A stretch of DNA of 64,000 nt, taken from positions 13,644 to 77,643 of the forward strand of contig JBPOIL010000012.1 of assembly GCA_052034495.1 (NCBI GenBank). The letters are read 5' to 3'. This DNA is from Patescibacteria group bacterium (GTDB taxonomy: Bacteria > Patescibacteriota > Saccharimonadia > CAILAD01 > JADZBC01). The stretch's first letter is position 1. Every line of letters begins with the position of its first letter. This document shows positions 19,038-42,244 of this stretch, one piece after another. The position numbers were made by a program, and so were the translations under genes. The notes under the pieces were generated by a model that saw only the letters and a program-made list of their open reading frames with translations, did no database searches and was not told the DNA's origin.

Positions 19038-19123
19038 GCGGATGTGGTGGAATTGGTAGACACGCTAGCCTTAGGAGCTAGTGAGGTAACACTCGTGAAG
19101 GTTCGAGTCCTTTCATCCGCACC
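19038..19123 (+). tRNA. tRNA-Leu(TAG), type II, CCA encoded
   Basis: Manual fold: acceptor GCGGATG/CATCCGC, D-loop with GG, anticodon stem CTAGC/GCTAG, loop CTTAGGA, long variable arm, T-loop TTCGAGT, discriminator A plus CCA. Confidence 0.85.
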
Positions 19124-19159: not shown

Positions 19160-19197
19160 TTGGGTAAACTGCCTACGAAATATAGTGTTAAAAAGTA

Positions 19198-19226
19198 TTG
19201 ACATTTTAACGCTTACGTGATATTAT
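19198..19226 (+). promoter_or_regulatory. sigma70-type promoter for the GC-rich small gene
   Basis: Near-consensus TTGACA, 17-nt spacer, TATTAT. Confidence 0.5.
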
Positions 19227-19303
19227 TTATCTAACCTGCGCACAAGGCAAAGGTTACCCCGACAGAGGTTGGGGATGAGTTGAGCCTAGGAGGCCAACCA
19301 GCC

Positions 19304-19636
19304 ATGCAAACCGAAGTGGCAAGAGAAGAGCAGCACCGTCCCCGCCTCGGAAGCAGCTACGACGCTTCCGCGGTCCCCGTGGGGCAGGTGATGCAGGTCA
19401 ACACCCGCAACTCCGCCTACTACTTCGTCTTCACCGATGAGCGGCGCATCAACCGCACCGACATCACCGGGGTCTCCGTGACCACGACGAACAAGGGCAT
19501 CGCGGTGGGTGCGCCCGCCAGCGTGCGGGTCGACCGGGTGATCCGTCGCGGGCAGTCGCTCCGCTTCGGCGCCGGTCGTGGGACCACGACTTCCGACGTC
19601 GTCTCGGTCTACGTGGCGGGTCGCCAGGTCGTCTGA
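19304..19636 (+). CDS. hypothetical small protein (110 aa) encoded in a high-GC island; start taken at ATG 19304 (ORF track begins at TTG 19280)
   Basis: AGGAGG RBS 10 nt upstream of the ATG; own promoter and terminator. GC content visibly far above the genome background; a frame-by-frame GC3 count has not been done. Confidence 0.5.
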   Translation: MQTEVAREEQHRPRLGSSYDASAVPVGQVMQVNTRNSAYYFVFTDERRINRTDITGVSVTTTNKGIAVGAPASVRVDRVIRRGQSLRFGAGRGTTTSDVVSVYVAGRQVV

Positions 19637-19702
19637 CCTGGTCCACCACAACTGCAGTCTTGAATGAGATCCAAGACAACATGCAGAGACCACCTTGATC
19701 TC

Positions 19703-19728
19703 GAGCCCCCACGTTATCGTGGGGGCTC
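19703..19728 (+). terminator. terminator hairpin after the GC-rich small gene
   Basis: GAGCCCCCacgttatcgtGGGGGCTC followed by an AT-rich stretch. Confidence 0.6.
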
Positions 19729-19788
19729 AATTCGTTATATCGCTCTATTACTACCAAATCTGGCTATATTCTGCTAAGATATGAAACT

Positions 19789-31853: not shown

Positions 31854-32399
31854 TTATGCGCGAACAAAGCATGTGCGACAGCGTGCCTCATAGCTATAGG
31901 TACCGTCCTCTGGCAGGATGGACGGAAGCCCTCCTGTGACTACCTCGCCGCCGTTGAGGACTTGGCTAAACCGTGCCTCATAGCTTCTGCACACGTCACA
32001 AACTGCGACAAGGCATTGCACACTTGTCGGCCCAAGTTCCATCAGGGCAACGGTGCCTTCGGTCAGTATGCCGCGATAGTCCATATCGAGCCCGACCGCG
32101 TACACAGTCGTCCCCCTGGATAGCAGTGTATCCAGTGAGCGCAGATCGTCTGGGCTGAACATATGCACTTCGTCTATACCGACTACGTCGTAGTCGGCAA
32201 GCCAGTCGACGTCGATTCCGTCGACCTTTGTCGTCTTGATGCTGGCTCCGGCACGAGAGCTCACTCGGTCTTCCCGGTCGTGCAGGTTGGGCTGCAGGAC
32301 TACCCACTTCAAATCGCTGTGCACGAGTGGCGAGAAGATCTTTATGAGCTCGAGCGATTTACCTGACTTCATGGGTCCCACGGTTAGGTGTAGTGGCAT
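31854..32399 (-). CDS. tdk: thymidine kinase, encoded in a high-GC island on the opposite strand between rpsG and fusA
   Basis: P-loop GPMKSGKS, VVGIDEVHMF, C-terminal zinc-ribbon cysteines (CDVC...CRTC). Start placed at the second ATG (AAGGAG RBS 9 nt upstream); the track ORF extends to 32408. Confidence 0.8.
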   Translation of the reverse strand: MPLHLTVGPMKSGKSLELIKIFSPLVHSDLKWVVLQPNLHDREDRVSSRAGASIKTTKVDGIDVDWLADYDVVGIDEVHMFSPDDLRSLDTLLSRGTTVYAVGLDMDYRGILTEGTVALMELGPTSVQCLVAVCDVCRSYEARFSQVLNGGEVVTGGLPSILPEDGTYSYEARCRTCFVRA

Positions 32400-32533
32400 T
32401 CGTTCCATCTCCTTACGGTTTCTTGACGTGATTATATTCTAGCTTACGAATCTAGCATTCTACCAGCCGTTAGTCGCATGAGGCCTATAGGCTAGGATTT
32501 TCCTTTGACGGCGTTGCATCCTGGGTTTTTACT

Positions 32534-34746: not shown

Positions 34747-34767
34747 GTCGGTTCAAATTTAGAACAC

Positions 34768-34803
34768 AAAGAGACCTTGTCAGATTGACAAGGTCTCTTT
34801 GTT
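34768..34803 (+). terminator. Rho-independent terminator after fusA
   Basis: AAAGAGACCTTGTCAgatTGACAAGGTCTCTTTgtt. Confidence 0.75.
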
Positions 34804-34959
34804 AGGTTATGATACTGAGCGAGATCGACCAGGTCTTCTAGCAGACAGCCTAGTAGTAGGTAGTAGTCGAACGAGTCGGGAATGTTGAGCCCGACAAAGG
34901 CGATGAAAGCAGACGTGCTGCAGCACATCATCTGTTCTACTGAAAGCATTCACCGTTCC

Positions 34960-35345
34960 GCGCCGCCGCGTGAACTCAACCTCTGGCACGCTTCAGGTAA
35001 GCGCCGAGGTCGATAAAGTGGAGGAACTAGACTGGTTTGCAAAACCACATATCCTGCGAAAGCAGAGGCTCGGAGGCATTCGGGCGGTTCGTATCTTCGG
35101 GGTCAGGAATCTTCTCAAGACCCGTAAGGAACCAGATTGTGGGTGGCGTGCATAATGATTTCTATGCGCGCGCGTCGCACCTCGCGTTAACGCCTCACGA
35201 GCGTTGCGAGGTTTTCGGGAGACGCCGGTTGCCGTCAGGCAGCCACCAAGGTGTGTGGATTCTAGGTACCTCTGCCTGAGGAGGCCCGAGCCTAGGCTCC
35301 ACACACGCTCTGCCCCTGGCTTCCGCCAGGGGCGCTCTGCTTTAA
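34960..35345. other. GC-rich structured non-coding island in the unusually long fusA-tuf spacer
   Basis: No credible ORF. Long imperfect hairpin GGTGTGTGGA...CTAGG...CCTAG...TCCACACAC (about 35254-35308), followed by GCCCCTGGcttccgCCAGGGGC. Confidence 0.3.
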
Positions 35346-35352
35346 AAGTCTT

Positions 35353-35381
35353 TACATTGGAGCAGTTTTTACCTATAATCG
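35353..35381 (+). promoter_or_regulatory. sigma70-type promoter for tuf
   Basis: TTTACA, 17-nt spacer, TATAAT. Confidence 0.5.
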
Positions 35382-35461
35382 AAAAGTCTAAGGCCTAGAC
35401 ATATTTTTATGTGTCTTCGCCAAGCGCTTATAAATTTAACAACGTTCAACAAGGAGAATAT

Positions 35462-36646
35462 ATGGCAGAACAATTCGATCGCAGTAAGCCGCATGTTAAT
35501 GTCGGTACTATGGGGCACGTAGATCACGGTAAGACTACTCTTACTGCTGCAATCACCCACGTATTGGCTAAGAAGCTTCCTAGCGCAGTAAACAAGCCAA
35601 TTAACTACGATGAAATCGACAAGGCTCCAGAAGAGCGCGAGCGTGGAATCACTATCGCAACTTCTCACCAGGAGTACGAAAGCGAAAAGCGACACTATGC
35701 TCACGTCGATATGCCTGGTCACGCTGACTATGTAAAGAACATGATCACTGGTGCTGCTCAGATTGACGGTGCTGTATTGGTGGTATCTGCTGCTGATGGC
35801 CCAATGCCACAGACCCGAGAGCACGTTCTCTTGGCTCGACAGGTTGGTGTTCCATATATCCTTGTCTACATGAACAAGATGGATATGGCCGACCCAGAGC
35901 TTGCTGAGCTTGTTGAGATCGAAATCCGCGAACTCCTAGAAAAGAACGGCTACGACGAGAACGCCCCAATCATTAAGGGTTCTGCCCTTAAGGCACTCGA
36001 AGGCGATGCCGCTGCAGAAGACTCAATCATGGAGCTTGTGAAAGCTATGGACGAAAGTGTTCCAGAGCCAAAGCGCGAAATCGATAAGCCATTCCTAATG
36101 CCAATCGAAGACGTATTCTCAATCAAAGGTCGTGGTACGGTAGCTACCGGACGAATTGAACAGGGAATCGTGAACGTAGGTGAAGAAGTAGAGATCGTTG
36201 GCCTTCACGACACCAAAAAGACTACGGTAACTGGTGTAGAAATGTTCAAGAAGCTCCTCGACGAAGGTCGTGCTGGAGACAACGTTGGCTTACTCCTACG
36301 TGGTATTGAGCGAACTGATATCGAACGCGGTCAGGTTCTGGCTAAGCCAGGTTCAATCACCCCTCACACCGAGTTTGATTCTGAAGTTTACGTTCTTAAG
36401 AAGGAAGAGGGCGGTCGCCACACTCCATTCTTCAAGGGCTACAAGCCACAGTTTTACATCCGCACAACCGACGTTACTGGTGAAGTTACCCTACCAGACG
36501 GCGTAGAAATGGTAATGCCAGGGGATAACATCAAGATGAAGGTTAAGCTCATCGCCCCGATTGCCATGGAAGAAGGACTCCGATTCGCCATCCGCGAAGG
36601 TGGCCGAACCGTAGGTGCTGGTGTTGTAACTAAGATTAACAAGTAA
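35462..36646 (+). CDS. tuf: elongation factor Tu (track ORF starts 17 codons upstream at 35411)
   Basis: [26 protein letters not shown]; AAGGAG RBS 5 nt upstream of ATG 35462; 394 aa. Confidence 0.95.
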
Positions 36647-36670
36647 CCAGGACTATAACGGAACCTTCAC

Positions 36671-36991
36671 ATGCCAGAACAAGCAAACAAACAACGCATC
36701 CGCATTCGCCTCAAGGCGTACGACAGTAAAATTATCGATCAGTCTGCTAAGCAGATCCTTGATACTGCCGTACGTACCGGCGCACAGGTAGTTGGTCCAG
36801 TGCCACTACCTACTGATAAGAACAAGTTTACGGTGCTATCTAGCCCCCACGTGTTCAAAGACGCTCGTGAACAGTTCGAAATGCGTACACACAAACGTTT
36901 AATCGATATTACTGAGCCAACTCCGAAGACGATCGATTCACTTATGAATCTTAACCTTCCAGCTGGTGTAGACATTGAAATTAAGATGTAA
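36671..36991 (+). CDS. rpsJ: 30S ribosomal protein S10
   Basis: [11 protein letters not shown]...; 106 aa. Confidence 0.9.
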
Positions 36992-37009
36992 TTTGCTCGA
37001 TCTAGTGTG

Positions 37010-37046
37010 AATCTAAAAGCCCCTCTTAACGAGGGGCTTTTAGATT
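37010..37046. terminator. bidirectional terminator after rpsJ (perfect 16-bp arms)
   Basis: AATCTAAAAGCCCCTCttaacGAGGGGCTTTTAGATT. Confidence 0.75.
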
Positions 37047-37151
37047 GGCTATGATTTGGCGTGAGCCGTTCTTCAATACACTACGCCTTGTACTTAGTGA
37101 ATTAATATGTTAAAGTATGTATATCATCCGCCCAGACGAGGAGAGTAAGCA

Positions 37152-37457
37152 GTGGAAATCACGATTCACTCATCTCGTCTTAGGCGTGATGTAAGTGGGA
37201 AACTTGACCCGCACGAGGTAGAGGATTATACCCGCCTTGTAAGGACGTTGCTCAATGGCGCACCCAAGCTCAATATCACTCGGGTACGACTTGTCCTTGC
37301 AGAGGATCTGCCTACGGGGCTTGAGTGGCGCATCGAGGTTAAGTCTGCACCCTCTGCGGCAGACACGCGTGTTCACATCATGAAGCGCTTCAAGACACAC
37401 CTGCGCCACCCGAAGGTGGTCGATGGAAGTGACGTCGAAGTGACGTTCCTTTCTTAG
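37152..37457 (+). CDS. hypothetical protein (101 aa, GTG start)
   Basis: GAGGAG RBS 8 nt upstream of GTG; no recognisable motif. Confidence 0.4.
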   Translation: MEITIHSSRLRRDVSGKLDPHEVEDYTRLVRTLLNGAPKLNITRVRLVLAEDLPTGLEWRIEVKSAPSAADTRVHIMKRFKTHLRHPKVVDGSDVEVTFLS

Positions 37458-37485
37458 CAGTAGGCGTGACATCTCTATTCGCAAA

Positions 37486-37520
37486 GCCCGCCCGGGTCAT
37501 CTCGGGCGGGCTCAGTCTTT
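37486..37520. terminator. terminator hairpin
   Basis: GCCCGCCCGGGtcatctCGGGCGGGC plus a T-rich stretch. Confidence 0.65.
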
Positions 37521-37530
37521 ACTCGTATAA

Positions 37531-37563
37531 CCAAAAAGTACCCGAATAATAGGTACTTTTTGG
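37531..37563. terminator. bidirectional terminator (perfect palindrome with A-run and T-run)
   Basis: CCAAAAAGTACCCgaataataGGTACTTTTTGG. Confidence 0.65.
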
Positions 37564-37608
37564 TTAAGACAGAACAAAGGCATCAAGTGTTTAATAGCTT
37601 TGGTCCGC

Positions 37609-37638
37609 CCGCCTGACCCCGATGAAGGGGTCAGGCGG
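37609..37638. terminator. terminator hairpin overlapping the stop of the minus-strand ORF
   Basis: CCGCCTGACCCCgatgaaGGGGTCAGGCGG. Confidence 0.55.
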
Positions 37639-37924
37639 AGAATGCATCTTCAGGTACGAGACCCAATCGTGCAGGGGTGGAGAACGGCGGCTCCCAGTAG
37701 TGGTCATCGAAGCGTTCACGGATTGCAGCGATGACGACTTCTACCTGGTGGTCGGTCATCGCGACCTCTGCCACCTCGTAGGTGAGACCTGCCAGGTGTT
37801 GTACCCGTGCGCCTCTCTGGCCAAGTGAGACCAGCTCTTGCTGTAGGAAGTTGATGACGAGCTGATGATCATCTTCTGGAATCATCACCTGGAACTGCCG
37901 CATGACATCTTGTCGTACGTGCAT
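37631..37924 (-). CDS. hypothetical protein (97 aa; start at the ATG with AGGAGG RBS; track ORF extends to 37993)
   Basis: AGGAGG 9 nt upstream of ATG CAC GTA...; no recognisable motif. Confidence 0.4.
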   Translation of the reverse strand: MHVRQDVMRQFQVMIPEDDHQLVINFLQQELVSLGQRGARVQHLAGLTYEVAEVAMTDHQVEVVIAAIRERFDDHYWEPPFSTPARLGLVPEDAFSA

Positions 37925-38093
37925 TGCACCGAACCTCCTTTCGAAGTTTGTGGCTCGGTGAGCTACAGACTGTATCTGCAATTCACCGGCCACAATCCCT
38001 AAAAGTTTGCAAAGTGCTTAAGGCTATGCCTTAATGTGCACAAATCATACTACAGATAGGTTGACACGTCAATAAGAATGTTGAAAAAAAGAC

Positions 38094-38122
38094 TAGACAA
38101 ACAATGCTAGCTGTGTTACTAT
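38094..38122 (+). promoter_or_regulatory. sigma70-type promoter driving the large structured RNA
   Basis: TAGACA, 17-nt spacer, TACTAT, in an AT-rich stretch. Confidence 0.4.
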
Positions 38123-38128
38123 GTGTAT

Positions 38129-38677
38129 CTAAGTTTGGTTTACGCCAAATTGCACCTTATATTTGGACTTCGGTCCATACAATCAGCTCTTGATACATTG
38201 AGCGTTGATTGTATGGACCTGACACCTTAGGTAAAGTCCATTGAATTGAAATCCGATCCATTTGAGGCTACGGCCACAAGAAAGGGTAGTAGCTTGCACG
38301 GAAGAGCGCACGTTTGCTGGTTCGCCAGTGTGACGTCACCGTTTCTCCTAGCACGCTACAATGCCCTGTAGGGTCGGATGATACCGGAAGCAACGGCCCG
38401 AGGGCCACCGCTTCCTGGTGTCGCCAGAGAATTTACGCCACGCGGCTTGCCGTAGGTATTGTTCTCTGAGCTTCGCGCCTTCTGCTTCGGCAGAAGGTCA
38501 TACGCTGAGGGTCCCGCCCCCTCAGTCGCGCAGGGTGGGTTCCGCCACCTGCCCTTGCGCACGACGCGCCCCGGGATCCGCCGCCTGGGACGCGCAGGTC
38601 GGCGGGGTGGCCTCCGGGCCACCCCGCCGCACCCACCACGAGACCTTGAACTTTGTTCAGGGTCTTCTTTCATTTTT
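38129..38677 (+). ncRNA. candidate large structured ncRNA (~550 nt) of unknown class, promoter to intrinsic terminator; its 3' third is extremely GC-rich
   Basis: No credible ORF. Series of perfect hairpins: GGTCCATACAATCA/TGATTGTATGGACC (38172-38219); CCTTCTGC-UUCG-GCAGAAGG tetraloop (38478-38497); CTGAGGG/CCCTCAG (38505-38525); GGCGGGGTGGCC-tccg-GGCCACCCCGCC. Terminator GAGACC...GGTCTTC plus T-run at 38640-38677. Motifs AAAGTCC (38233) after the first hairpin and GGAAGAGCGCAC (38300) are reminiscent of RNase P RNA, but the spacing does not fit. Confidence 0.4.
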
Positions 38678-38727
38678 GGATTAACTTTCTCTTCGACTCC
38701 CCATAGTTTTTATGCTTAAATAGAGTA

Positions 38728-38991
38728 ATGAAGAATAAGGGCGGCAAAAGGTATTACGAGTCTGACTTCGCTTTTTTGGTAAAGGCGGGCCTTTATCTCA
38801 TCCTCGGACTTACATGGATATCGATTAACGGACATAGAGTGATCCCGATAGGTGTAATCCTGGGCTTTATATTCTCTAAGGTTGATGTGCTAAGGATTGA
38901 TCGCAAGATAGAATATGCTCTACTCGTCGTTGGGGCGCTCTTAGGGCTGGTTTTTACGGGCATTGGCTTAACGATCTCCATTAGTCTATAG
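38728..38991 (+). CDS. small hydrophobic membrane protein (87 aa, two predicted TM helices)
   Basis: Hydrophobic stretches LYLILGLTWISI and VGALLGLVFTGIGLTISI. Confidence 0.4.
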   Translation: MKNKGGKRYYESDFAFLVKAGLYLILGLTWISINGHRVIPIGVILGFIFSKVDVLRIDRKIEYALLVVGALLGLVFTGIGLTISISL

Positions 38992-38993
38992 TC

Positions 38994-39320
38994 ATGGAGT
39001 TTACGCCTACACCCGCATTTTGGGTCAGTTTGCTGCCGGTGCCATTTTTGACCTACCTTAATATTAAAGTCGGCTTCCTTTTACTCGAGCTCCGCAGGCG
39101 CAACCGTGTCAAACGTATAAAATCAAGCAAGCTCTACAACCAGGGGAGGGCACTAGGTATGATATCTGCTTGCTTTGCCTTGTTGCCTGCAATCTTGGAG
39201 TGGCGTATATTCGTTCAGAACCCATGGTGGGCAATATCCTACCTCATAGGTGGTATTTTGGGCGTGCTTGCGCTCAGAATGGTACAAAGGGGCCTCAAGG
39301 CCGAGCTGCGGCGTAAGTAG
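38994..39320 (+). CDS. small hydrophobic membrane protein (108 aa, 3 predicted TM helices), 2 nt after the preceding ORF
   Basis: Hydrophobic segments; basic loop RRRNRVKRIKSSK. Confidence 0.4.
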   Translation: MEFTPTPAFWVSLLPVPFLTYLNIKVGFLLLELRRRNRVKRIKSSKLYNQGRALGMISACFALLPAILEWRIFVQNPWWAISYLIGGILGVLALRMVQRGLKAELRRK

Positions 39321-39344
39321 GCGCTTATCTAGGCTCGAAAACTG

Positions 39345-39374
39345 TTGACACTCCTGTTGGTTATCTGGTACACT
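39345..39374 (+). promoter_or_regulatory. promoter for the rplC-led ribosomal operon, followed by a ~140-nt leader
   Basis: TTGACA, 18-nt spacer, TACACT. The leader contains the hairpin GTCCG...CGGAC and a T-run at ~39483-39490. Confidence 0.4.
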
Positions 39375-39518
39375 AACGCTTGGTCTAAAACATTCCTTTT
39401 CAGGCTTAACGGCTGGGAAGTGATTAGGTCCGCTCGGTACAGGGTAAAGCGCCCGGACGGAAACCCATCAACTTGCCAGGATTTGTTTTTCTAGAATAAT
39501 CACATTAAGGAATCACGC

Positions 39519-40124
39519 GTGAAAGCACTGCTTGCTAAAAAGATAGGTATGACCCAGATTTTTGACGAATCGGGCGTAATGACTCCAGTAACTGTACTGG
39601 AGGCTGGTCCGTGTGTGATTACTCAGCTCAAAAGCGAAGAGCGAGACGGATATAGTGCAGTTCAGATTGGGTTTGGAGAAGCCAAGCACCAAGCCAAGCC
39701 GCAAGCCGGCCACCTCAAGCCAGCCAAAGCCAATAGCCGTTTCCTTACTGAGTATCGCGTAGATGGAGATCAGCCAGAGATGACAATTGGAGATGAACTT
39801 AAAGCCGATGTTTTTGCCGTCGGTGACAGCATAACAGTAAGTGCTGTTTCTAAGGGCAAAGGCTTCGCCGGAACTATCAAGCGTCACAACTTCGCTCGTG
39901 GTCCAATGAGTCACGGTAGCCATAATCACCGTGCTCCTGGTTCAATTGGTGCTGGTTATCCCCAACACGTGTTTAAAGGTCAAAAGATGGCCGGTCAAAT
40001 GGGTAGTAAGGCCGTTACCGTTAAGAACCTCAAGGTAATGGAAGTAGATGTAGAAAATAACTTGCTCGTGGTTCGTGGTGCAGTTCCAGGCCCAAAAAAG
40101 AGCTTAGTAATGGTGAGAGGCTAA
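39519..40124 (+). CDS. rplC: 50S ribosomal protein L3 (GTG start)
   Basis: L3 family sequence; AAGGAA RBS. Confidence 0.9.
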   Translation: MKALLAKKIGMTQIFDESGVMTPVTVLEAGPCVITQLKSEERDGYSAVQIGFGEAKHQAKPQAGHLKPAKANSRFLTEYRVDGDQPEMTIGDELKADVFAVGDSITVSAVSKGKGFAGTIKRHNFARGPMSHGSHNHRAPGSIGAGYPQHVFKGQKMAGQMGSKAVTVKNLKVMEVDVENNLLVVRGAVPGPKKSLVMVRG

Positions 40125-40128
40125 GGAC

Positions 40129-40758
40129 ATGAAGGCGATGACGTACACAGCTGCAGGCAAGAAGGCCACCACTGAAGTTACTTTGGATAAGGCGATATTC
40201 GGGCAAGAAGTGAATGCTGAGCTATTGAGCTTAGCGTATCGCCGCACTCTGGCTAACCGCCGAACTAATAACGCCAAGACCCTTACCCGCGGTCTTGTGC
40301 GTGGTGGCGGTAAGAAGCCATGGCGCCAAAAGGGTACTGGCCGAGCTCGTGTAGGCTCTAGTCGTACTCCGTTATGGCGAACTGGTGGTATCGTTTTTGG
40401 CCCAACTGGTAACGAAAACTACAGCATCACCATGACTAAGAAGATGATTCGCGGTTCAGTTGCCCAGGCTCTAAGCGCCCAGGCCGATCGAATTCGGGTT
40501 ATCGAGTCATTTAAGCCCGCAGAGTCCAAGACTCGCGCAGCAGTTGATTTGCTCGCCAAGCTAGAAGTAGAAGGTAGGGTGTTCATCGTAGTAAACGCCA
40601 TGAGTGAAGCAATTGCTCGATCTGTTGCAAACCTTCCAGGTGTTGAGGCCGTGACCCCGCAGCGCATTACTGCATTCGATGTGCTAAATGCCGACGCAAT
40701 TATTATTGAACAACCTGCTCTGGACAGCATTAAATCTTGGCTAGGAGGCACGAAGTAA
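40129..40758 (+). CDS. rplD: 50S ribosomal protein L4
   Basis: L4 family sequence, 209 aa. Confidence 0.9.
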   Translation: MKAMTYTAAGKKATTEVTLDKAIFGQEVNAELLSLAYRRTLANRRTNNAKTLTRGLVRGGGKKPWRQKGTGRARVGSSRTPLWRTGGIVFGPTGNENYSITMTKKMIRGSVAQALSAQADRIRVIESFKPAESKTRAAVDLLAKLEVEGRVFIVVNAMSEAIARSVANLPGVEAVTPQRITAFDVLNADAIIIEQPALDSIKSWLGGTK

Positions 40759-41126
40759 TGTCGCAGCTAATTCTAAAGCCTATCATTTCTGAAAAGAGCA
40801 TTATGCTTGCCGCAAATCGGGTATACACCTTTGAAGTTCCAATGGCGACTAACAAGATTGAAGTGGCTCGTGCTGTTAAGGCTGCCTTTAACGTTGACGC
40901 AACAGACGTCCGAATCGTTATTACAAAGGGCAAAGTTAAGCGATTTAAGGGCAAGAGTGGTCGTCGCGTTGATGTTAAGAAAGCTATGGTTGCCGTGAAG
41001 GAAGGCCAAAGCATTAAGATCTTCGAAGCGGAAGCCGAGACAAAAGAGGACAAAAAGGCAGTCAAGAAGCAGTCTAAGGACGAGGCTAGGAAGCCTACTA
41101 CTAAGACTGCGAAGGAGGCCAAGTAA
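40758..41126 (+). CDS. rplW: 50S ribosomal protein L23 with a Lys-rich C-terminal tail (start at the TAATG overlap; track ORF starts 40737)
   Basis: [14 protein letters not shown]...; AGGAGG RBS. Confidence 0.85.
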
Positions 41127-41959
41127 TGCCAGTACGAGTTTACAAGCCGAATACCGCTGCTCGCCGGAATATGAGCGTAAGTGACTTCGCAGAGATTACA
41201 AAGAAGTCTCCAGAAAAGTCATTGATCCTCAAGCGCAAGCAGAAGGCTGGCCGTAATAATCAGGGCAAGATTACTACTCGACACCGAGGTGGCGGTGCTA
41301 AGCGTGCGATTCGTATTGTGGACTTCAAGCTCACAGGCGTAGAAGGTGCCAAGGTAGTCGCAATCGAGTACGATCCAGGCAGAAGTGCGCGTATTGCTTT
41401 GCTTCAGCTCAAAGAAGGCGGCAAGGCTTATGTAGTGGCTAACGCCGGTCTCAAAGTCGGTCAAACGGTTACGTCTGGCAAGGATGCAGAAATTAAAGTG
41501 GGTAATCGTTTGCCACTATCTGCTATACCAGTAGGTTCAGTTATTTCTAACATCGAGCTGACTCCAGGTCGTGGCGGGCAAATGGCTCGTTCTGCAGGTG
41601 CTCGTGCCCAGCTAGCTGCTAAAGAGGGTGTATATGTACAGGTCAAATTGCCATCTGGAGAGGTACGACTCGTGCACCAGACCTGTATGGCTACTCTAGG
41701 CGCTATCGGGAATGCCGAGCATCAGAACATCAAGGTTGGTAACGCTGGCCGCAAGCGCCACATGGGCTTCCGACCAACGGTACGTGGTAAGGCTATGAAC
41801 CCGGTTGATCACCCGCACGGTGGTGGTGAAGGTGGTACAGATATTGGTATGCCATTCCAGAAGACGCCATGGGGCAAGCATGCTCTAGGTAAACGTACGC
41901 GACGACGTAAGAAGGGCATTGATATGATTATTCGCCGACGCGGAAAGGGTAATAGGTAG
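41126..41959 (+). CDS. rplB: 50S ribosomal protein L2
   Basis: L2 family sequence, 277 aa. Confidence 0.95.
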
Positions 41960-41965
41960 GTTATT

Positions 41966-42244
41966 ATGAGTAGATCTCTAAAAAAAGGTCCATACGTAGA
42001 CGCTAAGCTTTTGAAGAAAGTTGTTGCTCTTGGCCCGAATGAAAAGACAATAATTAAGACGTGGGCTCGATCTAGTAGCATTTCTCCTGAAATGGTCGGT
42101 AAGACTATCGCGGTCCATAATGGACGACAGCATCTTCCCGTATTCGTTACCGAAAACATGGTAGGGCATAAGCTCGGTGAGTTCTCGCCTACACGCAAGT
42201 TCCGTGGTCACGGTGGTAAATTGGCAAAGGCACAAGGAAAGTAA
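41966..42244 (+). CDS. rpsS: 30S ribosomal protein S19
   Basis: [12 protein letters not shown]... Confidence 0.9.

Follow-up and report, generated by a model that had tools for sequence, protein, structure and literature searches.

In the canonical str-S10-spc cluster of bacteria the genes follow the order rpsL-rpsG-fusA-tuf-rpsJ-rplC-rplD-rplW-rplB onward, rpsJ and rplC are spaced by tens of nucleotides, and one promoter with its leader stands 5' of rpsJ. The S10 leader of Escherichia coli is subject to L4-mediated attenuation and translational control. Bacterial noncoding RNAs (ncRNAs) longer than 500 nt are rare, and most have no known function; OLE, ROOL, GOLLD, HEARO/omega-RNA and raiA are the ones used for comparison below. 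The genomes of Saccharibacteria measure about 1 Mb and are under strong reduction. Here we describe the 2.5-kb segment that separates rpsJ from rplC in a Saccharimonadia genome (assembly GCA_052034495.1, contig JBPOIL010000012.1). The whole stretch of DNA analysed, 64,000 nt, is called the window, and all coordinates are window positions unless a locus label is given. A first-pass annotation made from the sequence had described this segment as a dense accessory insertion in the S10 operon. The comparisons below indicate that it is very probably an old inter-operon spacer typical of Saccharibacteria, filled in layers, and not an element inserted into a working operon; the tuf-rpsJ and rplC units would be separate, the rplC leader would act by attenuation, and an RNA gene in the spacer would act in trans. 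Literature searches found no description of the rpsJ/rplC split, of the ~548-nt RNA or of the rplC leader.

A shifted operon boundary in Saccharibacteria

The rpsJ-rplC distance was measured in 90 loci. Species loci came from an RpsJ-based genome scan (80 loci listed, without the window's own clade), and relatives from the window's clade were gathered through exact-protein look-ups, which gave contigs from metagenomes and metagenome-assembled genomes (MAGs). Loci compared with the window carry labels of the form L001. Among the matches listed, 10-11 species of Saccharibacteria and no other Patescibacteria are represented, and the best species-genome matches were MAGs of Candidatus Saccharibacteria, with RpsJ identity of up to 81%.

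The first-pass annotation had started from the view that rplC normally adjoins rpsJ, and this was borne out: the gap was 17-95 nt in all 69 loci from outside the Saccharibacteria (Actinomycetota, Bacillota and others) among the matches listed. The 10 Saccharibacteria species loci listed that hold both genes had gaps of 702-4789 nt, and the 10 contigs whose RpsJ is identical to the window's had gaps of 2.1-3.1 kb; the distance in the window is 2527 nt. Because the gap is long in both of these sets of ten and only 17-95 nt elsewhere, the split is, on sequence comparison, a trait of the Saccharibacteria lineage and not a recent or private insertion.

The window holds rpoB/rpoC, rpsL, rpsG, a thymidine kinase gene on the minus strand, fusA, tuf, rpsJ, the 2.5-kb segment, rplC, rplD, rplW, rplB and the rest of the ribosomal cluster, so that the canonical order is retained. 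What differs is the operon boundary, which has shifted by one gene. Since only 24 nt separate tuf from rpsJ, with neither promoter nor terminator between them, rpsJ closes the tuf unit and does not open an S10 operon. The strong bidirectional terminator that had been proposed behind rpsJ was confirmed as a perfect inverted repeat (Table 1); it is kept in L001, and an analogous hairpin stands behind rpsJ in L119. Neither the short rpsJ-rplC spacing of the canonical operon nor its single promoter and leader 5' of rpsJ is found in the window, where the conserved promoter and leader sit 5' of rplC. The S10 cluster would thus be cut in two, with rpsJ transcribed together with tuf as far as the terminator at 37046, and rplC onward transcribed from a sigma-70 promoter of its own.

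The window departs from the canonical cluster also in its long spacers at both rpsJ/rplC and fusA/tuf and in the opposite-strand thymidine kinase gene at rpsG/fusA (31854-32408), beside which relatives carry a small open reading frame (ORF). As this gene lies between rpsG and fusA, the str operon is also interrupted in the window's clade. One locus labelled 'Bacillota bacterium' (L013, DATIJU010000023.1) has a 3.9-kb gap, a homologue of the 87-amino-acid (87-aa) protein described below and the leader element 222 nt 5' of rplC; it is probably mis-binned or mislabelled.

Table 1. Predicted and called features in and around the rpsJ-rplC segment (window positions).
Feature	Position	Strand	Details or basis
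tuf-rpsJ transcription unit	35462-36991	+	same layout in all related loci
rpsJ	36671-36991	+	gene call
Bidirectional intrinsic terminator of tuf-rpsJ unit	37010-37046	both	perfect 16-bp inverted repeat flanked by A-run and T-run
101-aa orphan gene	37152-37457	+	GTG start, GAGGAG Shine-Dalgarno
Hairpin 1 between convergent ORFs	37485-37512		perfect, 10 bp
Hairpin 2 between convergent ORFs	37528-37566		perfect, 15 bp
Hairpin 3 between convergent ORFs	37609-37638		perfect, 12 bp; overlaps stop codon of minus-strand ORF
Variable small-protein slot, 97 aa (family B)	37631-37924	-	AAGGAGG Shine-Dalgarno, C-terminal WEPP
Slot-gene 5' untranslated region (UTR), ~113 nt	37925-38037	-	structured; conserved though coding sequence is not
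Slot-gene promoter	38072-38044	-	TTGACG-17-TATGAT; conserved; back-to-back with RNA promoter
RNA promoter	38094-38122	+	-35 TAGACA, 17-nt spacer, TG-extended -10 TACTAT; scan, conserved
Structured RNA gene, ~548 nt	38129-38676	+	folding, covariation; ends predicted
RNA P1	38133-38140/38143-38150	+	fold
RNA invariant AAAUUGCACCUUAUA	38147-38161	+	all homologues
RNA P2	38172-38193/38198-38219	+	fold
RNA middle domain	between P2 and the YCCGCC-loop hairpins	+	variable, branched
RNA YCCGCC-loop hairpins	~38504-38527, ~38532-38555, ~38570-38589	+	fold
RNA GC hairpin	38600-38629	+	fold
RNA terminator	38640-38676	+	scan
Membrane-gene promoter	38692-38721	+	TTCGAC-18-TGC-TTAAAT, TG-extended -10
ORF87 (87 aa)	38728-38991	+	conserved membrane protein
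ORF108 (108 aa)	38994-39320	+	conserved membrane protein
rplC promoter	39345-39374	+	TTGACA-18-TG-TACACT; scan, conserved
rplC leader, ~138 nt	to 39518	+	Shine-Dalgarno AAGGAA
Attenuator-like hairpin	39413-39479	+	P1-P1b-bulge-GG:CC-AA bulge-P2; AGGUC...GAAACC
Leader U tract	39482-39491	+	directly 3' of hairpin
rplC	39519-40124	+	first gene of remaining S10-type cluster (rplD, rplW, rplB...)

Age and layering of the segment

The packing of the segment was as dense as the first-pass annotation had said, the gap being full of predicted independent transcription units. Its description as an accessory insertion survived only in part. In blastn comparisons the left ~0.9 kb (37047-37928) was only patchily common to relatives and varied among close ones, whereas the split itself and the right 1.6 kb (37928-39512), which comprises the RNA, the two membrane-protein ORFs and the rplC leader, proved old and shared, with 70-82% nucleotide identity across the clade and 98-100% in the nearest strains. 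An old, fixed arrangement common to relatives, which the annotation had named as the outcome that would speak against an insertion, was thus found for the split and the right-hand part and not for the left-hand part, and the comparison of the junction in relatives brought out a variable left part and no private or recent insertion.

The spread of the genes within the segment was nested when hidden Markov models (HMMs) were run on six-frame translations of the loci. The 87-aa gene was the most widespread: it occurs in the window's clade, in L119, in L122-L123 and in five distant species loci (L012-L016), always directly 5' of rplC. The 108-aa gene was found in the window's clade and L119 only, and the RNA in the window's clade only (nhmmer, covariance model). 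RplC identity to the window is 81-100% in the RNA-bearing clade and 68% in L119, the nearest relative that lacks the RNA; both membrane ORFs and the rplC promoter and leader occur in RNA-less relatives too, and membrane genes and rplC promoter/leader extend to relatives with only 50-68% RplC identity. In L119-L121 a minimal core was seen, in which rpsJ, the terminator, an 85-aa gene, the 108-aa homologue and rplC follow one another within ~920 nt and the RNA is lacking.

A recent accessory or mobile island, inserted between rpsJ and rplC and splitting an otherwise intact S10 operon, would account for the differences in the left 0.9 kb among close relatives, for a coding sequence swapped between strains that are 98.5% identical, for the orphan status of all four proteins and for the GC content of the 3' half of the RNA (60-64%, against ~49% in the genome). 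It does not accord with a split found in every sampled Saccharibacteria locus with both genes among the matches listed, with a right 1.6 kb common to the clade, or with membrane genes and a leader that reach relatives of 50-68% RplC identity. Nor does the segment look like a mobile element. It contains four small orphan ORFs only, with no integrase, transposase, recombinase or other mobility gene, and Pfam, NCBIfam, PHROGs and PADLOC gave no match, phage- or defence-related or other, for these ORFs. No flanking direct repeats of at least 12 nt, as a target-site duplication would leave, were found spanning the segment, and no tRNA or transfer-messenger RNA (tmRNA) lies beside it, the nearest tRNAs being at 19038 and 56037. 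An empty site was seen in no relative; what varies is sub-parts, the 101-aa gene and the coding sequence on the minus strand. We consider a recent island very unlikely, and for the split itself this explanation is largely refuted.

As an old spacer filled in layers, the segment would have received first, directly 5' of the rplC promoter, the pair of tiny membrane-protein genes. A second layer, confined to the window's clade, would be the ~548-nt RNA gene, back-to-back with a ~100-aa gene whose coding sequence is swapped, and the 101-aa gene would be a third, sporadic layer. The rpsJ/rplC junction behaves as a permissive, gene-accumulating site that tolerates large insertions, because other Saccharibacteria keep housekeeping-type genes there. 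The gaps of these other Saccharibacteria hold an ABC-F ATPase (548 aa, L122:1102-2748), a MamF-like protein, a CTP-synthase-like ORF (527 aa, L017:9321-10904) and large ORFs of no known kind.

A structured RNA gene

A promoter-driven, terminator-ended, highly structured RNA region of ~550 nt had been proposed upstream of the membrane-protein genes; a predicted promoter, a terminator and covariation were all found there. The plus strand of 38120-38690 has a minimum free energy of -285 kcal/mol (z = -11.9 against shuffles; minus strand z = -8.8). The z-score is weak evidence and counts little in favour of an RNA: the case rests on covariation, because a GC-rich and probably coding island elsewhere in the window (19304-19636) also folds, at z = -9.7.

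Twelve homologues were read, about nine of them distinct. Both promoter hexamers, the TG and the terminator were conserved in all 12. Every homologue has the same 5' hairpin, a long second hairpin, a variable middle and a run of GC-rich hairpins, ending in a penultimate hairpin of 12-16 bp with a UYCG-type loop and then an intrinsic terminator. Between sequence groups the RNA is 49-65% identical, while RpsJ is 96-100% identical in the five groups in which it could be measured. In the 5' domain, RNAalifold gave 27 pairs; 96.3% of cells were paired, and in 10 pairs both sides had changed. In 500 shuffles neither the observed covariation score nor the percentage paired was ever reached, and when the partners were slid by 1-3 columns only 27-48% of cells were paired. 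In the penultimate 3' hairpin, 6 of 13 pairs were compensatory. The covariance model scored 90-120 bits on the plus strand versus 23-41 on the minus strand and found one match per locus; it found none in the rest of the window, in the controls or in Saccharibacteria that lack the RNA. Translated similarity among the homologues jumps from frame to frame and is seen on both strands, which leaves no conserved frame. Compensatory pairs, a promoter and terminator of its own at the sequence level and the lack of a conserved frame are what is generally expected of an ncRNA gene, and on these alignments the region is a real, previously uncatalogued ncRNA gene of ~548 nt with predicted ends.

The 3' half invites another explanation, a stack of GC-rich hairpins (repeats of the REP or MITE type, or terminator debris) or a decayed or overlooked coding gene. 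This half is indeed a run of independent GC hairpins whose number depends on lineage, the RNA length ranging from 553 to 683 nt, and the probably coding GC-rich island folds with z = -9.7 as well. Public gene calls also put a 160-aa ORF over the GC-rich half in L096-L099 and L101 (e.g. L096:3972-4454); this ORF is spurious, because the translated similarity is inconsistent in frame and present on both strands. The hairpin motif has no second copy in the window, exactly one copy stands at one position per genome fragment, and conservation with compensatory changes extends over the 5' domain, the promoter, the penultimate hairpin and the terminator. Repeats or a lost gene are on these grounds highly improbable.

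Every homologue carries 2-4 hairpins with YCCGCC in the apical loop on stems that differ, and such strong-stem hairpins (6-9 bp) occur nowhere else in the 64 kb. In addition, a copy of the 3' strand of P2 lies upstream of the 5' strand of P2 (GUCCA...), and the two may pair to give a short cUUCGg hairpin (GGAC-UUCG-GUCC), within 38162-38219, that competes with P2. In every homologue the two partners of this alternative hairpin have changed in step, which suggests a folding intermediate or a switch; counted on the MAFFT alignment, the hairpin is only 75% paired, owing to a misalignment by one column. A pairing of the invariant AUUGCACC of the RNA with the start region of the minus-strand ORF, GGUGCAAUG, was dropped, as the complement is missing in other loci.

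The size of the region and its GC-rich UUCG-loop hairpins resemble those of stable housekeeping RNAs, and weak resemblances of motifs such as GGUAAAGUCC and GGUAGAGCGC were seen by eye, so a fast-evolving known RNA missed by the models was considered (RNase P RNA, tmRNA, signal recognition particle (SRP) RNA, 6S RNA, OLE, ROOL, GOLLD or omega-RNA). Rfam 15 gave no match at E <= 1 over 35000-42000, and at E <= 10 the RNA alone gave only hairpin-type microRNA matches of ~18 bits. At the gathering threshold, which covered RNase P, tmRNA, SRP, 6S, OLE, ROOL, GOLLD, HEARO and ribosomal-protein leaders, there was no match in 15 related loci, and the whole window returned tRNAs only; ARAGORN found no tmRNA. 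The RNA is moreover missing from sister Saccharibacteria, which must carry their essential RNAs elsewhere. The by-eye resemblances to RNase P, tmRNA and SRP RNA were rejected, being neither conserved among homologues nor backed by Rfam. That the region is a known RNA is extremely improbable. A pattern scan of metagenomes for the 5' motif gave 15 matches, all by chance and in contigs of 29-43% GC, and nhmmer found nothing real there.

The two membrane-protein genes

The two back-to-back ORFs that the first-pass annotation had placed before rplC are present and conserved. The 87-aa family has 29 homologues with a strongly conserved motif, RI[DN]RKIEYALLVVGA, and the 108-aa family has 15. An AlphaFold2 (AF2) model of the 87-aa protein was helical (mean predicted local distance difference test score, pLDDT, 79), and a structure search with it returned only non-specific helical matches. 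Of the four small ORFs for which HMM and structure checks had been proposed, the 87-aa and 108-aa proteins form conserved families, but no Pfam, NCBIfam, PADLOC or PHROGs family and no fold could be assigned to them. The 108-aa homologue is uncalled in L002, L006, L007 and L009 though the HMM finds it there. In a near-identical strain (L005:8331-9583) the 108-aa gene lies in two frames and the rplC match is only 58%; this anomaly 3' of ORF87 is a frameshift, a rearrangement or an assembly error.

Because the -10 element lies 7 nt before the ATG, the sequence suggests that the ORF87 mRNA is leaderless. No terminator was found between ORF108 and the rplC promoter, and therefore the membrane genes can read into the rplC unit.

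These signals bear on whether the structured region is a free-standing RNA or a long cis-acting 5' leader (riboswitch or attenuator) of the two membrane-protein genes. The region reads in the direction of ORF87, only 51 nt separate the end of its terminator hairpin from the ORF87 ATG, and the synteny is constant in all RNA-bearing loci, as would be expected of a leader. However, the homologues retain a canonical terminator with a U tract, in which compensatory changes are seen, and a separate promoter with a TG-extended -10 lies between that terminator and the ATG. A related promoter-like element stands at the same place before the 85-aa gene in the RNA-less L119, but its -10 is TATGAT and not TTAAAT, and the same two genes are kept without such a leader in L119-L121. 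The length of 550 nt, too, far exceeds that of known riboswitch leaders. A cis-acting leader is accordingly an unlikely account of the region.

Possible roles of the RNA

We favour, from sequence, an RNA that would act in trans as a ribonucleoprotein scaffold or as a protein-binding RNA. It would be a stable molecule working as a ribonucleoprotein, with the 2-4 YCCGCC apical loops as repeated docking sites for protein and the invariant single-stranded AAAUUGCACCUUAUA together with the P2 region as its specific core.

Several described RNAs are alike in one respect or another. The layout resembles that of OLE/OapA in Bacillota, a large ornate RNA (~550-600 nt) with its own promoter directly 5' of small multi-pass membrane-protein genes with basic segments, and we use it as a working analogy only. 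The window RNA has no Rfam OLE match, its membrane proteins belong to no detectable family (no OapA match was reported), and these proteins occur without the RNA in L119, L122, L123 and L012-L016, in another taxon and another genomic context. Homologous RNA and protein that always occur together, the mark of OLE/OapA, are not seen here; the layout alone is alike. ROOL, GOLLD, HEARO/omega-RNA and raiA likewise exceed 500 nt, contain many covarying helices, are phylogenetically restricted and have no known function. The window RNA matches none of them in Rfam and differs in having no prophage or tRNA context and no IscB/TnpB neighbour, being fixed at one site in the ribosomal cluster. As in sequestering RNAs of the CsrB/RsmZ type, several hairpins display the same short loop motif in every homologue; here there are only 2-4 sites (YCCGCC) and the motif is not GGA; the molecule is also far bigger, and its 5' domain is conserved and non-repetitive. 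The window yielded neither a candidate protein to bind the YCCGCC loops nor mRNA sites that match them.

By analogy with OLE/OapA, the RNA may be the first member of a new class of large ornate bacterial RNAs of one Saccharibacteria lineage that forms a ribonucleoprotein with proteins of the flanking genes. The partner could be the fast-evolving ~100-aa alpha/beta protein or the two tiny basic-tailed membrane proteins, the particle could be tethered to the membrane or linked to ribosomes, YCCGCC loops would serve for docking, and the fusA-tuf unit described below would perhaps be a companion. We put this forward as a speculative proposal that is unlikely to hold.

The rplC promoter and leader

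The promoter and ~140-nt leader that had been read before rplC were recovered as given in Table 1. The promoter, with the pattern TTGACA-N17/18-TGnTAnAnT, recurs in every Saccharibacteria locus examined. The leader consists of an outer helix P1, P1b, a 2-nt bulge, an invariant GG:CC, an AA bulge, a variable P2 and a U-rich tract, and its AGGUC and GAAACC are conserved. Folded one by one, all 20 distinct leader sequences give the same bulged hairpin, 23-222 nt 5' of rplC, and P1, P1b and P2 use many different Watson-Crick and wobble combinations.

A hand-made descriptor of this structure was scanned over 2.4 Mb (both strands of 125 sources), where it gave ~40 scattered background matches. At 20-230 nt 5' of rplC it was present in all loci of the window's clade and, among the matches listed, in 8 of the 10 species loci of more distant Saccharibacteria and in none of 69 other bacteria. 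A covariance model built on the window's clade (R2) matched L119, L122 and L123 at 48-62 bits; in the distant species L012-L021 it gave only sub-threshold matches, at the right places. Owing to misalignment, RNAalifold made no prediction from the leaders as aligned by MAFFT, and folds of single sequences and the descriptor were used. No Rfam leader family matched.

A conserved 5'UTR structure placed for termination or for occlusion of the ribosome-binding site is what characterises ribosomal-protein leaders, and it is found here; by position and form the rplC leader is a candidate of the attenuator type. Like the E. coli S10 leader, it is ~140 nt long and stands in front of the first gene of a cluster (here rplC-rplD-rplW-rplB), with a hairpin and U tract ~30 nt before the start codon. 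It differs in preceding rplC and not rpsJ, and in the AGGUC...GAAACC and AA bulge, which are specific to Saccharibacteria; no resemblance in sequence to the E. coli leader was noticed, though no direct comparison was made. In E. coli 23S rRNA only loose resemblances to AGGUC...GAAACC were seen, e.g. GGGUC...GGGAAACC at 577-635, and no convincing mimic. A ribosomal protein encoded in the operon would bind the leader hairpin, in parallel to L4 on the E. coli leader, and rplC expression would be tuned by protein-dependent termination at ~39490.

The left-hand genes

The two convergent small ORFs named in the first-pass annotation, and the three perfect hairpins said to separate them, were all found in place (Table 1). 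Because orthologues at 47-55% aa identity keep length and position in diverged relatives, both ORFs are, as judged from sequence, real genes.

Orthologues of the 101-aa gene with that identity are present in L001 and L118, and profile comparison relates it weakly to the 92-aa ORFs found in L091 and L096 (hhalign E = 5e-4). Only 2 true matches were found among 1.84 billion representatives. The gene is missing from L002, L004, L009, L010 and L117 and is optional across lineages.

The minus-strand gene occupies a slot whose content differs between relatives. Family B, that of the window, is also found in L003 and L096; a second family, C, fills the slot in L001, L002, L004, L005, L009, L010, L117 and L118, and L091 and L094 have singletons. 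These families share only a short C-terminal [WF]E[PD]P motif, and homology of B and C is unsupported (hhalign probability <1%). The AF2 model of the 97-aa protein was modest (pLDDT 63, from a shallow alignment), with beta-alpha-beta-beta-alpha order and generic ferredoxin-like structural neighbours only. L005 carries family C although its flanks on either side match the window at 98.5% identity, which points to allelic replacement of the coding sequence by recombination in the conserved flanks.

The 5'UTR and the 3' hairpin of the slot are conserved around the non-homologous coding sequences across the clade, with 37570-37638 remaining 85-88% identical even where the ORF differs. The 5'UTR contains AAAGGAGG followed by GGUUCGGU, and the latter is able to pair with an upstream CACCGAGCC. 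It holds two hairpins, the 3' arm of the second being CACCGAGCC, which is also able to pair with GGUUCGGUG, between the Shine-Dalgarno sequence and the AUG. These pairings could form a translational switch, kept despite the exchange of coding sequence. When the slot was considered as a toxin-antitoxin or defence cassette, PADLOC, Pfam and NCBIfam gave no match for families B, C or the neighbouring ORFs; the slot is a single gene with its own UTRs and lacks a two-gene toxin/antidote layout.

The three hairpins at 37485-37638 are predicted terminators for both convergent ORFs. The promoter scan gave 8 sites, against 3.1 +/- 1.8 in shuffles; the terminator scan, taken by itself, showed no enrichment (5 against 3.1 +/- 1.6). 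It is because they are perfect palindromes of 10-16 bp and conserved in relatives, and not because of the terminator scan, that these signals exceed chance.

Other spacers and islands in the window

The fusA-tuf spacer (34747-35461) is also long: it measures 716 nt in the window, and its range in the clade with the RNA is 693-753 nt, against only 223 nt in L119, which lacks the RNA. All 4 sequence groups keep a promoter, TTGACA-17-TATGAT, that overlaps the fusA terminator, and a terminator (35313-35345) lies just before the tuf promoter. Between groups only 34903-34967 is conserved, possibly as a 37-41-aa ORF starting MKA[DG]VLQH. Folding gave z = -4.1, and there was no real Rfam match. The spacer looks like a second promoter-to-terminator unit, ~530 nt long and with no called gene, on the far side of tuf-rpsJ.

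The probably coding island mentioned above belongs to a stretch of 62% GC (19190-19730) just 3' of tRNA-Leu, with its own promoter, a GGAGG Shine-Dalgarno sequence and a terminator. Its ORF (19304-19636) encodes 110 aa with a strong G/C bias at third codon positions and no Pfam match. The island may be a gene acquired from a high-GC organism.

Discussion

Several points weigh against an old, layered spacer with a trans-acting RNA and an attenuating leader. The split was assessed in only the 10-11 Saccharibacteria species among the matches listed, with no other Patescibacteria. Every promoter, every transcript end and the leaderless start is predicted. About nine distinct sequences represent the RNA, all of them from one clade, and shared ancestry may inflate the covariation counts; the variable middle third could not be reliably aligned. 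The RNA is tied to its neighbour genes only by synteny in that clade, which shared descent can explain, and the membrane genes do not need it, because they are found in RNA-less loci. Homology of the leader across the phylum is read from a hand-made descriptor, the covariance model not being significant in the most distant leaders, and the regulatory protein of the leader is postulated by analogy. We nevertheless hold such a spacer to be very probable as a whole.

For annotation, the locus shows gene callers setting spurious ORFs over the RNA and calling the small conserved genes inconsistently. The rplC leader would add a new candidate to a known class of ribosomal-protein leaders and a case from the candidate phyla radiation for the evolution of autoregulation. 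Since the RNA is retained in a reduced genome, keeping promoter, terminator and base pairs over 550 nt while its sequence drifts to ~50% identity, it likely matters to the cell. Natural transformation has been shown for cultivated Saccharibacteria (PMC10633639), and the RNA would be open to genetic testing by this route if the clade that carries it is cultivable. The boundary of a near-universal operon, that of S10, can move, and in this lineage it differs.

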